A stretch of DNA of 25,962 nt from Nanobdellota archaeon. Lineage in GTDB: Bacteria > Patescibacteriota > Minisyncoccia > UBA6257 > GWB1-50-10. The stretch spans positions 1 to 25,962 of the forward strand of contig JAUYPG010000003.1 of the NCBI GenBank assembly GCA_030695805.1. The letters run 5' to 3'. The translations under genes and the position numbers were made by a program. Within the stretch, counting starts at the first letter, position 1, and the number at the start of each line of letters is the position of its first letter. Below are positions 15,390 through 20,267 of this stretch, piece by piece. Below the pieces are notes generated by a model. The model did no database searches. It was not told where the DNA came from and saw nothing but the letters and a program-made list of their open reading frames with translations.

Positions 15390-15713
15390 TTATAATTGTT
15401 TTATTTTTTCTTGAATATAAGCCGCTTCGTCTCGCACCACCTCGCCGTCATAGTCCCCGCTGTGCGCGGTTTCATTTCCGTACGTGGGACGCTTTTGATC
15501 AAGGTGGATGTTGAACACGAACTCATCCCCCTCTTCCTTTATATAGGCGTGGAAGCGAGGATAATCCCCTCCCAGGAGGCGAACGCAGTTCAATTCCCCC
15601 TTATCCGTAAACCCCAGAGGTTTATATCCTAGATGACGCACGATGGTCTGTAAATTCGCGTGCTTTGATTTTTTTATTCTTATTGTCATCTGCCGTTCTT
15701 GGTATTGTATCAT
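15390..15713 (-). CDS. Conserved hypothetical protein (start at 15713 or 15689)
   Basis: LGY...VRLLGGDYPRFHAYI...FNIHLDQKRPTY...HSGDYDGEVV. The track start at 15773 overlaps the divergent gene. Confidence 0.8.
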   Translation of the reverse strand: MIQYQERQMTIRIKKSKHANLQTIVRHLGYKPLGFTDKGELNCVRLLGGDYPRFHAYIKEEGDEFVFNIHLDQKRPTYGNETAHSGDYDGEVVRDEAAYIQEKIKQL

Positions 15714-15719
15714 ATTTTC

Positions 15720-15747
15720 TTGCCTTCTTTTGTCATCGGCGTATAAT
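15720..15747 (+). promoter_or_regulatory. Promoter TTGCCT-16-TATAAT for the carbonic anhydrase
   Basis: TATAAT at 15742-15747, 12 nt before ATG 15760. Confidence 0.5.
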
Positions 15748-15759
15748 ACGCTCCAAATT

Positions 15760-16827
15760 ATGAATGAAAGCAAGAATGGAAACGGAATAGATTACCTTAT
15801 CCGGCTAAACGAGGCCCACTCGAGCGAATTTGTAAGCCCGGAAATGACCCTCGCGCGGAGGCAGTATCGCGCCAAACACCCGACAGAAATCGGAGTTTTG
15901 AAATGCATGGATGGACGCCTGCACCTTCCCGTTATGACGAACACCGCGCTCGGCATCATCCAGCCGTGGAGGAATCTCGGCGGGCGTTTTGACCTCGGAT
16001 GGTATGGATTCGCCCTCTCCATCAAGGGGTGGGTGGACTACGCAATCGGCAGAGGTCGGGATGTCCTTATTATCGTTACCTACCATTTTGCCAAAGGAAA
16101 TTCTCATCGCGGATGCCGCGGTTTTAATTATGATGTGGAGGCCGCGAAGGCATTCACCTCTCGCCTGAAAAAACAATTCGACAGGGTTTTCGGCAAAGGC
16201 ACGGTCTACGCGATTCAGTGCGGGATAGAAACGGATTCGGACGCGCTCATCCTGCACGGCGAGCATGGAGAAATTGCGGATCTTTCACTCCTCGAGGATT
16301 TTTCGGAACCGCGCCTTGAACAATTGATCCGTGAACTCTACCCGGATATGCCGGAGGCGATAGCAAAAGATCTTCTCCCGCTTGCTTGCGGAAATGTGAA
16401 CCATGTTGCGGAGGTAAAAGATTCAAACCGCCCGATAGCCGATGTCGAACACAAGGAATGGGTTCTCGCGCTCGGGCGCGGATTCGACTGGCTGCACCTC
16501 ATAAACACCGGGCTTATCGTAGGTCCCTTTGATCCCGATTTCGCGGGCGCCATTGAAAAAGCAACCCTTATTCTCGAATCGAATCTTAAGGAAGGCAGGA
16601 TTGACGAGAAAAGTGGAGTCGTGCTTATGACCTCGGCGCCATACCGCGAGGCCTCTGGTCCGGAGCCCCGCCTTGCGGAAGAGAAGACCAGGTTTCTCAT
16701 GGACTTCGCTCTCGGGGTCATTGAAACCCGGGTTCCGAAGCTTATTTCCCACATCAGCCGCGTTTCCACAACCGTTGACATGAACACGCGCCGACTCCAA
16801 CTTATCGAACGGTTTGATAAGAAATAA
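15760..16827 (+). CDS. Beta-class carbonic anhydrase resembling carboxysomal CsoSCA
   Basis: KCMDGR (Cys-x-Asp-x-Arg), TYHF...HRGC (His and Cys Zn ligands), IETDSDALILH, EHKEWVLALGRGF. Start reassigned to MNESKN. Confidence 0.75.
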   Translation: MNESKNGNGIDYLIRLNEAHSSEFVSPEMTLARRQYRAKHPTEIGVLKCMDGRLHLPVMTNTALGIIQPWRNLGGRFDLGWYGFALSIKGWVDYAIGRGRDVLIIVTYHFAKGNSHRGCRGFNYDVEAAKAFTSRLKKQFDRVFGKGTVYAIQCGIETDSDALILHGEHGEIADLSLLEDFSEPRLEQLIRELYPDMPEAIAKDLLPLACGNVNHVAEVKDSNRPIADVEHKEWVLALGRGFDWLHLINTGLIVGPFDPDFAGAIEKATLILESNLKEGRIDEKSGVVLMTSAPYREASGPEPRLAEEKTRFLMDFALGVIETRVPKLISHISRVSTTVDMNTRRLQLIERFDKK

Positions 16828-17697
16828 TTATTCGATTTTTACATATCTTTTCGTGTACTCCGGATTTGTTCCGCAACACCCGCCGATTATCGTTGCGCCA
16901 AGTTTCTTCCATTTTGCGGCCTCTGCGACATAAAGCTCCGTATCGTCCTTATTTTTGAATTCCCACCCTTCTTTATCCGCGGGCCCTCCATCGCCGTTTC
17001 CGTAACCGCCAAATGGAATATTGGTGCATTCTTTTATTTTTTTTATGCTTTCCGTAATAATTTCCGGTCTGGCGCAATTTACGAGAAACGCAATCGGCCC
17101 GAGTGGCGCGAGCGCTTCAACCGCCTCTTTCCACGAACTTCCGTCGAATATATCTCCGCTTGTATCAGGCACAAAACTTATGGCAAATGGTTTTCCGGTT
17201 TTTCTGGCAGCGCACGCGGCAACCTCTGCCTCCGCAATCGTATTCATGGTTTCAATGAGGAAAAAATCAATCCCGAATCCCGCGAGCAGCTCCGCCTGTT
17301 CCCTATGTTCTTTTTCCAGTTCTTTTTCTGCGGGCACCAGGTTCGGGCGATAACAATCCTCAAGGGTTGTTGTGCAGGCCGCTATCCAAATTTTTCGGTC
17401 CGCGCCCGCCTCCTCAATGGCTTTTGTCGCGAGTTGTACGGCGAGCTTATTTATCCTTTCCGTTTCTTTTTCCAGTCCGACTTTCCGAAGCGTCCGCCTC
17501 TGCGTGCGGAAGGTGTTTGTGGTTATCACGTCTGCTCCGGCTTTTATGTAATCTTTGTGGATCTCTTTTACCAACTCCGGCTTCTCGAACAGCACTTTTG
17601 CCGACCAGAGCGGAAGGGTGGTGAGGCATCCGCGACGCTGTATTTCCGTGCCCATGGCACCGGACAAAAATGTGATTTTATTTTTGCTGAATATCAT
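16828..17697 (-). CDS. Homocysteine S-methyltransferase (HMT/MmuM family)
   Basis: GAMGTE, LWSAKVL...HKDYIKAGADVITTNTF, FLIETM, VNC and GGCCG Zn ligands. Start at MIFSKN. Confidence 0.92.
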   Translation of the reverse strand: MIFSKNKITFLSGAMGTEIQRRGCLTTLPLWSAKVLFEKPELVKEIHKDYIKAGADVITTNTFRTQRRTLRKVGLEKETERINKLAVQLATKAIEEAGADRKIWIAACTTTLEDCYRPNLVPAEKELEKEHREQAELLAGFGIDFFLIETMNTIAEAEVAACAARKTGKPFAISFVPDTSGDIFDGSSWKEAVEALAPLGPIAFLVNCARPEIITESIKKIKECTNIPFGGYGNGDGGPADKEGWEFKNKDDTELYVAEAAKWKKLGATIIGGCCGTNPEYTKRYVKIE

Positions 17698-17737
17698 ATT
17701 TTTTAGTTTAATGTTATTGGTTGAAAATTGAAGGTGG

Positions 17738-17761
17738 GGCGGCGGAAGCAAGTCCGCCGCC
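17738..17761. other. GC-rich hairpin between the Met methyltransferase and HMT genes
   Basis: Perfect 9-bp stem ggcggcgga/tccgccgcc. No immediate U-tract, so more likely an mRNA-stabilising hairpin or weak terminator. Confidence 0.55.
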
Positions 17762-17774
17762 TCGATGCTCTATG

Positions 17775-18614
17775 TCATGCGAGACGACCCTCGATGACGT
17801 AGATGTAATGATACACACTCTCCCTTAGGGAAAGGCGATGCGCGGCTTCCATGGCGCCAATGCACCCCTTCCCCTCGGGAGAAAGAAAGAACTCGAACCG
17901 ATGCTCCCCAGACATCTCCATTTCAGCGAGGGGCCGGAGGTCCGTCTGTGCGTGCTGACGGACTATCTCCTTGTGGATGACGCGCGGCTCGTACCCGCAC
18001 ACCACGAAGAGATTCGTGAGGCGCTTGATTCCGGGTCGTCCACCGAGGTTCAGGATGACACGGCCGTTTTTCGGAAGCGCCACTCCCTGGGCCTGTCGGA
18101 GGAGATCCTCGACAAGACCCAGGCCCAAAGAGTGGTTATGCCCAGGATGCTCCTCGGCATTGTAGTAGTGGGCAAGGGTGTCCCCCTCGCCCAATACCAC
18201 ATTCTTGGGGCACGGAACCTGAGGGATGCAACCGATGACGATGTCGGCCTTCGGGGGTGTATTACGTCCGCTTTTTACCAGATTCCACCTTCCAAACAAG
18301 GGGAAATCCCTTCCCTTAAGAAAATCCTCGAGTGGCGCGCTCGTGGTGAGGTTTTTCATCGCGAGTTTTGTACAACGCGCATCGTAGTCCGAGAAGATGC
18401 GTGTCGCACCCGGAAACCAGCGACGAAGGAGGATCTGTACGATCCCCGTTCCAACGCCGATTTCCCAAACGGTTTCGGTGGTGAGTTGTGCTTGTTTCAA
18501 CCCTCGGGCGAAAGTCCATGTCCATGCGTCTGGCATGAATGCCCACTCCGGAATTTCGATTTCTCCCTCGATCCCCTCGCGGAGATCTTCGGGAAGAAGC
18601 TCTTCGATCCTCAT
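17775..18614 (-). CDS. mmtN: Methionine S-methyltransferase (MmtN / plant MMT N-terminal domain homologue)
   Basis: FMPDAWTWTFARGL, EIGVGTG, VIGCIPQV, LGLGL, ILNLGGRPG, TDLRPLAEME...HRFEFF match my recalled plant MMT motifs (FMPEDWSFTFYEGL, VGCIPQI, FGLGL, IFNMGGRPG, TDISALVEIE...HRFEFF). AAGGAG RBS lies 8 nt before ATG 18614. Confidence 0.85.
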   Translation of the reverse strand: MRIEELLPEDLREGIEGEIEIPEWAFMPDAWTWTFARGLKQAQLTTETVWEIGVGTGIVQILLRRWFPGATRIFSDYDARCTKLAMKNLTTSAPLEDFLKGRDFPLFGRWNLVKSGRNTPPKADIVIGCIPQVPCPKNVVLGEGDTLAHYYNAEEHPGHNHSLGLGLVEDLLRQAQGVALPKNGRVILNLGGRPGIKRLTNLFVVCGYEPRVIHKEIVRQHAQTDLRPLAEMEMSGEHRFEFFLSPEGKGCIGAMEAAHRLSLRESVYHYIYVIEGRLA

Positions 18615-18716
18615 TCCCTTCACTCCTTATTGATAAGGTGCGGTTGCGGCGCCTGCTTCCCCATGGATTCTCCATGAAGTAGGCACCGTGCCACACCCCA
18701 TCTTTTTTCAAAGAAC

Positions 18717-18766
18717 CAAAAACAAAAAACAGCCCCGACAAGAGTCGGGGCTGTTTTTTGTTTTTG
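18717..18766 (-). terminator. Attenuator terminator (23-bp perfect inverted repeat, 4-nt loop)
   Basis: caaaaacaaaaaacagccccgac-tctt-gtcggggctgttttttgtttttg on the minus strand. Confidence 0.92.
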
Positions 18767-18770
18767 TACT

Positions 18771-18860
18771 TCAAAACCCCCGATTCTTGTCGGAATGTTG
18801 CATCATCATATCCATCATTATGCTCGTCGTTATTTTTTTGTGCGTTATGACGTTTTTCAT
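18771..18860 (-). CDS. Met-rich leader peptide (29 aa) of a putative attenuator
   Basis: MKNVITHKKITTSIMMDMMMQHSDKNRGF*; five ATG codons within codons 15-20, directly before the antiterminator strand. Too short for the ORF track. Confidence 0.8.
   Translation of the reverse strand: MKNVITHKKITTSIMMDMMMQHSDKNRGF
18778..18793 (-). promoter_or_regulatory. Antiterminator strand
   Basis: ccgacaagaatcgggg pairs 15/16 with ccccgactcttgtcgg inside the terminator hairpin. Confidence 0.8.
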
Positions 18861-18925
18861 TTTCAATATTCAGGATATCGGATATCTCTTCGAGCCTGAG
18901 GCTCTCAGAGCCGAATGGCCTGATT

Positions 18926-19969
18926 TTACATTTCCTCCCACGGGAGGCCGGGCTTGCCAAAGTGGCCGTAGACCGCGGTTTGCTTGTAGATGGGACGCCG
19001 CAGATTTAGGCGTTCAATAATCGCGCGCGGGCGGAAGTCGAAACGCTTTTTTATTTCTTCGGTCATGCTCTCTCCTTCTTCGTTTATTGCCTCCACCATA
19101 AGAGGATCCACGTGTCCTATGGCGTAGGCCACGGAAACCAGACATTTTTTCGCAAGCCCCTCTCTCACCATCTGCTTTGCGGCGTATCGGCACATATAAG
19201 CCGCGGAGCGGTCCACCTTTGTGGGGTCCTTCCCTGAAAACGCTCCGCCTCCATGCGGGATAAGGCCTCCGTAAGAATCCACCATAATCTTCCTTCCGGT
19301 TAGCCCTGCGTCGGCCTCAAATCCGCCCTGTACGAACTTGCCTGTGGGATTCACGAAAATCTCCACTCCTTCAATGTCGCCTATCACGGGCTTTATTAGT
19401 TTTTCTATGAGTTCTTTTCTGATTTCTTCCTGTGTAATGCTTTCTTTGTGCTGACAGCTTACGAGCACGATACGCGCCTTATCATTTTCAATTGTAATCT
19501 GTGCTTTGCCGTCCGGCAGGAGCCACGGAAGAACTCCGCTTTTTCGGAGATTCTCCAGGCCCTTTGTAAGATTATGAACGAGGACGATGCCTTTCGGCAG
19601 ACACTCCTCGGTCTCGTCCGTGGCATAGCCGTACATAATCCCCTGATCTCCGGCGCCGCCGGTGTCCACACCCATCGCAATGTCCGGCGACTGCGTTACG
19701 ATCTGAGTTATGATTTTTATATCGTCTTCGTACCCGATCTCCTTGTAGAGTTCGCGGGCTATGTTTTCATAATCGAGCTTCGCTTCCGTGGTAATTTCTC
19801 CTCCCAATACGAGAAGTCCGTGGGAGCCCATAGTTTCCGCGGCAACGCGACTTTTTGGATCTACGGCGAGGGCCGCGTCCAAAATCGCGTCCGATATCTG
19901 GTCGCAGACCTTATCCGGGTGGCCGGAGGTAACTGATTCGACTGTGTATATTTTTGGGACGTGTACCAT
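18926..19969 (-). CDS. metK: S-adenosylmethionine synthetase
   Basis: ESVTSGHPDKVCDQISD, GAGDQGIMYGYA, NPTGKFVQGG..ADAGLTGRKIMVDSYGG, GGGAFSGKDPTKVDRSAAY. Start at MVHVPK, after AAGGA. Confidence 0.97.
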   Translation of the reverse strand: MVHVPKIYTVESVTSGHPDKVCDQISDAILDAALAVDPKSRVAAETMGSHGLLVLGGEITTEAKLDYENIARELYKEIGYEDDIKIITQIVTQSPDIAMGVDTGGAGDQGIMYGYATDETEECLPKGIVLVHNLTKGLENLRKSGVLPWLLPDGKAQITIENDKARIVLVSCQHKESITQEEIRKELIEKLIKPVIGDIEGVEIFVNPTGKFVQGGFEADAGLTGRKIMVDSYGGLIPHGGGAFSGKDPTKVDRSAAYMCRYAAKQMVREGLAKKCLVSVAYAIGHVDPLMVEAINEEGESMTEEIKKRFDFRPRAIIERLNLRRPIYKQTAVYGHFGKPGLPWEEM

Positions 19970-19981
19970 TATGCTTCCTTT

Positions 19982-20072
19982 CCAACACGAATGACGCGAA
20001 TAGAACGCGAACAACACGAAAACGCAATAACGTTCGCGTTGTTCGTGATGGAGTTCGTGTTATTCGTATTGG
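19982..20072. repeat. Long imperfect inverted repeat built from cgaa-containing short units, in the metK leader
   Basis: Outer arms pair 18/19 (with G-U); inner arms aacgcgaac/gttcgcgtt. Confidence 0.6.
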
Positions 20073-20105: not shown

Positions 20106-20115
20106 ATTCGACTGA

Positions 20116-20221
20116 TTATCTTTCCCTTGTGGGGTCCGAAGGAGCACCTTTCCCCTCGAGTCACCTCGGGGCGGTTGCTGTGCGGATCGTTGGGTCGGTT
20201 CCCTCCCCGCGCTCTTGATAA
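20116..20221 (-). ncRNA. SAM-I (S-box) riboswitch aptamer
   Basis: TTATCAAGAG...GGAGGGA..ACCC..CAGCAACC...GGTGC...GAAAGATAA; P1 ttatc/gataa, P3 gcaacc/ggtgc, P4 ccc/ggg; upstream of metK. Confidence 0.92.
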
Positions 20222-20239
20222 CTATGAAATTGTAGCGTA

Positions 20240-20267
20240 ATTATATACGACTTTTATTTCGTGTCAA
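20240..20267 (-). promoter_or_regulatory. Consensus sigma70 promoter TTGACA-16-TATAAT
   Basis: Perfect hexamers, 18 nt upstream of the riboswitch P1. Confidence 0.85.

Follow-up and report, generated by a model that had tools for sequence, protein, structure and literature searches.

Ribosome-mediated attenuation is a textbook mechanism, yet a methionine version of it is uncharacterised. The regulators generally assigned to methionine genes are S-box and other SAM riboswitches, T-boxes, MetJ or MtaR. At the locus described here, a short open reading frame (ORF) containing a run of Met codons ends directly before a strong terminator and is followed by a gene pair of methionine metabolism, which raises the question whether the ribosome acts as a methionine sensor in front of this operon. 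The locus was analysed within a stretch of 25,962 nt, contig JAUYPG010000003.1 of assembly GCA_030695805.1, referred to below as the window. The assembly, obtained from groundwater, measures about 695 kb (0.7 Mb) in 94 contigs and is 83% complete; its size is that of a CPR/Patescibacteria genome. The sequencing runs found to contain this sequence were groundwater DNA runs, with no RNA run among them. All features are located on the minus strand unless indicated otherwise.

Genes of the operon and upstream unit

The mmtN gene (17775..18614), preceded by AGGAG at 18627-18623, encodes a protein of 279 aa. No Pfam family was hit by this protein. The family profile matched the MmtN structure 7VVV (E 2.6e-61, residues 23-277), so that the gene label proposed in the original prediction holds and the product is, judged by this profile match, a Group II methionine S-methyltransferase. 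Activity was reported for five CPR homologues, indicating that CPR Group II MmtN proteins methylate methionine (Peng et al. 2022; PMC9135737). The linkage to a homocysteine S-methyltransferase (HMT) gene was noted in the same study and an S-methylmethionine cycle was proposed for CPR MmtN, while regulation of MmtN is not mentioned in PMC9135737. HMT was found adjoining mmtN in at least 24 loci.

In the window, the HMT gene (16828..17751) was identified by domain search and is the sole member of its family in the assembly. Searches for the MetE and MetH families gave no hit in this assembly, which is 83% complete, and HMT therefore appears to be its only methionine-forming enzyme; SAH hydrolase is present. 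MmtN converts Met and SAM into S-methylmethionine (SMM) and SAH, and HMT converts SMM and homocysteine into two Met. Taken together, both reactions give a net conversion of SAM and homocysteine into SAH and Met. An ORF of 394 aa on the plus strand (15643-16827) abuts the HMT stop codon; it showed a weak match to the carboxysome shell carbonic anhydrase (TIGR02701, E 2.7e-5, far below cut-off) and no Pfam hit.

Upstream of the leader lies metK (18926..20017), encoding S-adenosylmethionine synthetase with three S-AdoMet_synt domains. A promoter scan located a sigma-70-type promoter of this unit, TTGACA-16-TATAAT, with a score of 12/12 (20240..20267), and a SAM-I riboswitch aptamer (RF00162; 54.7 bits versus a gathering score of 44.4, E 3e-10) was detected at 20113..20224. 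The original prediction had placed the SAM-I riboswitch in tandem with the attenuator. This arrangement did not hold up: the riboswitch precedes metK, a whole gene further upstream, and metK was found upstream of mmtN-HMT in this window only and in none of the other MmtN-HMT loci.

Leader ORF, terminator and antiterminator

The leader ORF (18771..18860) runs from an ATG at 18860-18858 to a TGA at 18773-18771 and comprises 29 codons plus the stop codon. As read from the sequence, codons 15-20 (18801..18818) are ATG ATG GAT ATG ATG ATG, that is, five Met codons (18818-18813 and 18809-18801) with a single GAT in between. A 29-codon ORF with five Met codons at 18818-18801 had also been described in the original prediction, and the peptide was recovered in an ORF scan. 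The assembly as a whole contains 6,990 ORFs of 6-70 codons starting with ATG, and this one alone has five Met in a 7-codon window; the second-best density, four Met per 7 codons, was reached by one other ORF. In 1 Mb of control sequence from the related loci, at least four Met per 7 codons were present in 8 of 5,757 short ORFs, a count in which the leader copies of L024-L028 were left unmasked, so some of the eight may be leaders. The Met cluster fits the cognate amino acid, given that the downstream HMT forms Met. Read on the plus strand, the same run consists of His codons; this reading was rejected, as there is no plus-strand gene downstream.

An intrinsic terminator follows at 18766-18717, consisting of a perfect 23-bp stem with a 4-nt loop (-37.7 kcal/mol) and the tract U6GU5. 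Its G+C core of 10 bp (18753-18730) accounts for -21.0 kcal/mol. The TGA ends 4 nt ahead of the extended stem, confirming that the stop codon sits just before a strong terminator, and the terminator is separated from mmtN by 100 nt. Downstream of the terminator, and ahead of the ribosome-binding site of mmtN, lies a long imperfect hairpin (18628..18703; -44.7 kcal/mol, z -5.4) with no Rfam match and no second copy found in the genome; stabilisation of the readthrough mRNA and a further regulatory function are possible roles.

After the last Met codon and a spacer of 7 nt (18800-18794), the antiterminator strand (18772..18793) begins. It is situated within the 3' end of the ORF, overlaps the stop codon and has as partners the terminator A-tract, 5' arm, loop and the start of the 3' arm. 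The pairing of 18793-18778 with the terminator core claimed earlier was recomputed and reproduced: 15 of 16 positions pair with 18750-18735, with one A x C mismatch and a duplex energy of -26.5 kcal/mol. In the terminator, the target consists of the upper part of the 5' arm, the loop and the five initial bases of the 3' arm. The post-Met segment complements the 5' arm of the terminator significantly better than do dinucleotide shuffles (p = 0.015) or natural segments of the locus (p = 0.012).

No Rfam leader or riboswitch family was found at gathering score in the region 18500-19000. Sub-threshold matches were obtained for Thr_leader (30.5 bits) and Phe_leader (18.2 bits; threshold 55 for each), both on the terminator alone.

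Comparison of MmtN loci

MmtN is nearly absent from the order to which the organism belongs (one weak match in 300 genomes), and close kin were therefore unusable for comparison. When the intergenic region was searched at the DNA level against 40 relatives, repeat copies alone were returned and no leader, and a single-protein scan of genome contigs for MmtN gave no match. Alignment-based scans did find loci; the resulting set consisted of 80 loci found with the family alignment and four looked up by identity.

A Met-run ORF followed by an intrinsic terminator was present in 17 of the 24 MmtN-HMT loci with upstream DNA, which belong to Saccharibacteria, Paceibacterota/Parcubacteria and Peribacteria/Peregrinibacteria. 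These 17 loci yielded 16 distinct leader peptides of 14-31 residues. Among the MmtN loci without HMT, about 45 in number, no Met-run ORF was found. Three of the 24 loci (L031, L062 and L065) carry a SAM-I-like riboswitch at the same place instead, with matches of 28.1 and 37.9 bits, which is below gathering, and local E values of 3e-4 and 3e-7. Leader peptides and SAM riboswitches thus exchange at one operon; sensor exchange is known for other attenuated genes (PMC2965389). In two further loci, both from Peribacteria, the leader ORF has been lost (L038, about 2280-2400; L040, about 2310-2375). Promoter and terminator-like hairpin are retained there and the ORF of L040 is reduced to ATG-TGA, which looks like decay or rewiring of the switch.

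Several variants of the arrangement were observed. Two tandem Met leaders, each with antiterminator and terminator, precede one mmtN-HMT operon in L029:2202-2476 (same as L024). An extra ORF of ~100 aa is located between the Met leader and mmtN in the Peregrinibacteria-type loci L039:2012-2314 and L068:730-1038. Upstream of HMT-less MmtN genes (L023:3915-4003, L033:2375-2464 and L034:2378-2467), a near-invariant element of ~65 nt extends up to the start codon. Within it lie the palindrome ATGGTATATACCAT and a hairpin that covaries; Rfam gave no match at gathering score, and the element is a possible operator or small leader of riboswitch type.

Directly after the U-tract of the window's terminator, the motif GTTCTT is present (18711..18716). 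It is common to 7 of the 16 leaders, with 0.026 expected per window, and occurs just past the terminators of L030, L032, L035, L037, L067 and L027. It likewise follows the terminators of L062 and L065, two of the SAM-I-like leaders. The motif may form a distal part of the termination signal.

Covariation of the two helices

For each leader, the segment from the last Met codon to ~10 nt past the stop codon was compared with the terminator A-tract, 5' arm and loop. Complementarity to the 5' arm was detected in 15 of 16 leaders (p <= 0.015 with dinucleotide shuffles, p <= 0.027 with natural segments). Fisher's combined p amounts to ~1e-22 for the 16 leaders, a value that is overstated because kin loci are not independent.

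Ten leaders could be aligned over their whole length and were used for covariation analysis. They share one order of elements: the Met run, a G-rich U-tract strand mimicking the terminator 3' arm, a spacer, the A-tract and hairpin, the U-tract and often GTTCTT. In the antiterminator, 87% of cells are paired and 5 of 11 pairs changed on both sides, while slid controls reached 39-60%. Similarly, 87% of cells are paired in the terminator, with 5 of 8 pairs changed on both sides and slid controls at 39-68%. For neither helix was the score reached in any of 500 shuffles. Both helices involve identical 5'-arm columns; such a pair of conserved but mutually exclusive helices is the hallmark of attenuators.

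The leader is thus a real, conserved cis-regulatory element. A search for Met-run uORFs with covarying stems upstream of mmtN/HMT homologues had been suggested as a check in the original prediction, which would have been contradicted by homologues lacking the Met run and the alternative pairing. The run was recovered in 17 of 24 loci and the pairing in 15 of 16 leaders, and both helices covary.

Start of the leader

No SD was found before the leader ATG at this locus. The original prediction had listed this as a weak point; the absence is confirmed and is not peculiar to this copy, since an SD-like motif is missing in 15 of 16 leaders. In 11 of 16 leaders, a sigma-70-type promoter scoring at least 8/12 is present with the -10 box ending 4-12 nt ahead of the ATG, a score reached by only 2.4% of control ATGs. 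Being mostly SD-less and having the -10 box 4-12 nt before the ATG, the Met leaders of most relatives look leaderless. For the window, the candidate promoter TCGAAG-17-AATATT scores 7/12, which is reached by 10% of control ATGs.

The sequence just 5' of the leader ATG is a mobile-looking palindromic repeat. As found by a genome repeat search, one arm of it (18861..18886) ends in AATATT (18870-18865), a weak candidate for a -10 box, 4 nt before the ATG. The repeat, AATATC-NN-GATATCCGATATC-NN-GATATT, gave 65 hits (both strands counted) and is found at ~30 other places in genome G000, for example C75:1189-1231, C17, C25, C67 and C85, often in tandem. It often ends 1-10 nt before the ATG of real genes such as trmD, which begins 3 nt past the same repeat arm as the leader ATG. 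Possible roles of the repeat are those of a REP-like element, of an operator or of a cassette supplying promoters to genes that lack an SD. Another repeat, an intergenic hairpin of the type GGCC-TTCGGCTCTGAGAGCC-TCAGGCTCGAAGAG that occurs in multiple copies, is located at 18884..18923 and is regarded as context outside the switch. Further copies are present in G000 (C67:3798-3848, C33, C30 and C74), and the repeat is common to genomes of different families in the order, with 21 matches in the relative G028. In C67, the hairpin repeat adjoins the palindromic repeat in the same order as at the leader.

According to folding, the start region of the leader is unpaired and A-rich. SD-like motifs precede the first start of 11% of 555 ORFs of at least 200 codons in G000, versus a background of 12%, in a crude test with uncurated starts; this suggests that initiation in this organism is largely SD-independent. 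On the minus strand, no terminator-like site was found between 18926 and 18766, so that the leader would also be reached by transcripts from the metK promoter. As the local promoter is weak, such metK-derived transcription of the leader is possible.

These features bear on the alternative that survives best. The family of leaders would be real and this copy crippled: insertion of the repeat would have removed the promoter, the leader would rarely be translated, and a constitutive partial terminator or antiterminator would remain between metK and mmtN. The promoter score of 7/12 against at least 8 in 11 of 16 relatives fits this explanation, as do the palindromic repeat abutting the ATG and a stem that is much longer than those of the relatives. 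However, this copy has kept intact the ORF, the Met run, the position of the stop codon and the 15/16 pairing, its start region is A-rich and free of structure, SD-like motifs are unenriched before long ORFs, and trmD starts 3 nt after the same repeat arm. A crippled copy is therefore considered unlikely, with the translation frequency of this leader copy being the main uncertainty.

Terminator and downstream promoter

A second alternative is that the hairpin is a plain metK terminator, the Met-rich ORF and the upstream complement being chance features of a 3' untranslated region. It is the first terminator after the metK stop codon, it is very strong and looks bidirectional, and the ORF has no SD. 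Against this explanation, the cassette of ORF, antiterminator and terminator precedes mmtN-HMT in 16 other loci, none of which has metK upstream. At the DNA level the terminator is homologous to those of leaders L067 and L027; since both lack an upstream metK, it belongs to the mmtN leader. Moreover, no promoter-like sigma-70 site was found between terminator and mmtN (18716-18615), so that expression of mmtN-HMT depends on readthrough, and the ORF is the most Met-dense short ORF of the genome. The chance explanation is accordingly given very little weight. Both roles are compatible, and the terminator probably has to end metK transcripts too.

Met codons versus RNA motif

The 16 leader peptides are alike in the Met run alone. 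The codon interrupting the MMxMMM-type run varies (D, V, E, C, A, T, G or S) and is always exactly 3 nt, which favours reading the run as codons over reading it as an RNA motif. This observation is relevant to a third explanation, in which the AUG-rich stretch and hairpins form a translation-independent RNA switch or protein-binding site, responding to Met, SAM or a regulator, and the frame is incidental. The AUG repeat could indeed be a binding motif, and orthologous operons use a SAM-I-like riboswitch. Nevertheless, the Met codons are always in one frame, which always opens at an ATG by the promoter and closes 7-17 codons past the run, 4-38 nt before the terminator. The alignment contains no conserved structured aptamer outside the two helices, and no Rfam match was obtained. 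A role independent of translation is thus highly improbable. Least probable of all is that the nascent Met-rich peptide arrests the ribosome on a small molecule or acts in trans, the sensor not being tRNA charging: leader peptides with such roles exist (TnaC, PMC8429421; peTrpL, PMC7298713), but known arrest peptides have a conserved sequence and among the 16 peptides, 14-31 residues in length, only the Met run is conserved.

Folding model and proposed mechanism

Transcripts of increasing length were folded under a ribosome footprint of 29 nt. Without a ribosome, or with a ribosome stalled at Met15-18, the antiterminator is the predicted minimum free energy structure for transcripts ending at 18744-18730, which is the RNA outside the polymerase while on the U-tract. 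In these states, the terminator takes over only from 18726 on. With the ribosome at Met20, the antiterminator is predicted to be weakened. A ribosome at the stop codon covers 18788-18760; in the model, the antiterminator cannot form in this case and the emerging terminator zips up, and for this window the probability of upstream pairing of the 5'-arm core drops from 0.83 to 0.02. In several relatives, whose stop codon is situated past the antiterminator, a ribosome placed at the stop codon did not mask the antiterminator in the footprint model; masking would there have to be brought about by a moving rather than a parked ribosome.

Equilibrium folding favours the full terminator (-37.7 kcal/mol) over the antiterminator (-26.5 kcal/mol) whatever the state of the ribosome, and the switch must therefore be kinetic. 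Strand 2 alone forms a self-hairpin of only -5.8 kcal/mol. Consequently, there is no effective 1:2 protector and the untranslated leader is predicted to read through. The trp/his geometry of the original prediction thus stands for the ORF, the antiterminator and the terminator and does not extend to a strong 1:2 protector, with readthrough instead of super-attenuation predicted for the untranslated leader. The mechanism put forward at that time, in which a stall on Met leads to readthrough and arrival at the stop codon leads to termination, agrees with the folding model and with the conserved, covarying pairings.

We conclude, with a probability of roughly 80%, that the leader is a ribosome-mediated transcription attenuator that senses charged elongator Met-tRNA and gates mmtN-HMT. 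From the model we infer ribosome stalling, kinetics and methionine response as follows. Polymerase would enter the leader from the weak promoter by the ATG or from the SAM-riboswitch-gated metK unit, and a ribosome would translate the 29-codon leader ORF. When Met-tRNA is plentiful, the ribosome would reach the TGA and cover 18788-18760, including the antiterminator strand; the 10-bp G+C hairpin would then form on emerging and transcription would end in the U-tract. When Met-tRNA is scarce, the ribosome would stall at codons 15-18, leaving 18793-18772 free to pair with the terminator 5' arm and loop once these are made, resulting in readthrough into mmtN-HMT. A leader without translation is expected to read through as well.

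Methionine has a single codon and is also needed for translation initiation, which makes the logic of Met sensing less clean than that of Trp or His. As the untranslated leader would read through, the switch is predicted to stay ON even if Met shortage blocks initiation. Such default readthrough suits Met, because the classical design would, with initiation blocked, shut the operon when it is needed. This initiator-Met paradox would thus find a concrete answer in a switch that, by the folding model, reads through by default.

Under Met-tRNA shortage, the induced enzyme pair would make methionine from the SAM pool and from recycled homocysteine, while the SAM-I riboswitch would separately adjust metK to SAM. 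A counterpoint to this supply logic is that MmtN itself consumes Met. These elements can be combined into a broader reading, which we offer tentatively and at somewhat less than even odds: a default-ON Met attenuator, which dropped the protector hairpin because Met also starts translation and which terminates only when a ribosome finishes the leader, would be combined with the SAM-I riboswitch of metK into a circuit with two inputs, SAM and Met-tRNA. This circuit would run a plant-like S-methylmethionine cycle as the only Met-regenerating route of a CPR bacterium, and the whole cassette would have spread between CPR phyla.

The element, ~145 nt as a whole, provides the first regulatory evidence that the CPR MmtN-HMT pair (PMC9135737) serves methionine supply. 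Hardly anything is known of gene regulation in CPR bacteria, and the conserved, covarying Met-codon leader suggests, on comparative sequence grounds, that this group employs the ribosome to sense methionine.

Comparison with known systems

No characterised Met-codon attenuator was found in the full-text literature searched, and Rfam holds no Met-codon leader family. The statement in the original prediction that none has been characterised can be kept in this form, with the addition that a Met leader, metL, was already predicted upstream of metNIQ in Streptomyces lividans TK24 (PMC8079986), the one predicted case encountered. Like the leaders described here, metL is a leaderless short ORF with Met codons ahead of a methionine gene and was proposed to be an attenuator. 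It differs in having two or three scattered Met codons within CMCRRMC, no clear terminator, and no comparative or experimental support (PMC8079986).

Other leaders outside the classical set are the leaderless leader peptides of Deinococcus deserti (PMC4007540), some of which are translated from an AUG at the 5' terminus of the transcript, and the Cys-codon uORF before cysS of Rhodobacterales (uORFC-8-2; PMC8632094), which senses another sulfur amino acid. Amino acid, lineages and target genes differ from those of the Met leaders, and no Met leader is mentioned in the main text of either paper.

The SAM-I (S-box) riboswitch, which precedes metK in this window, acts by premature termination on the same operon in L031, L062 and L065. 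Unlike the leader, which is predicted to sense Met-tRNA charging via the ribosome, its aptamer senses SAM directly.

The closest likeness is to the trpL, hisL, pheL, leuL, thrL and ilv leaders of E. coli and Salmonella, which combine a short ORF carrying a run of cognate codons with an intrinsic terminator. As in these attenuators, the antiterminator shares the 5' arm of the terminator, and the stop codon is placed for masking on completed translation. The Rfam families of such leaders (Trp_leader, His_leader, Leu_leader, Thr_leader and Phe_leader) do not cover the element, the best match being Thr_leader on the terminator only, at 30.5 bits versus a gathering score of 55. Unlike in the classical attenuators, the sensing codons are Met codons, hence a single codon that is also the initiator, a stable 1:2 protector is lacking so that the untranslated leader is predicted to read through, most leaders appear leaderless, and the hosts are CPR bacteria. 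The Met leader would work like a classical attenuator and departs from it in the amino acid sensed, the missing protector and the leaderless starts.
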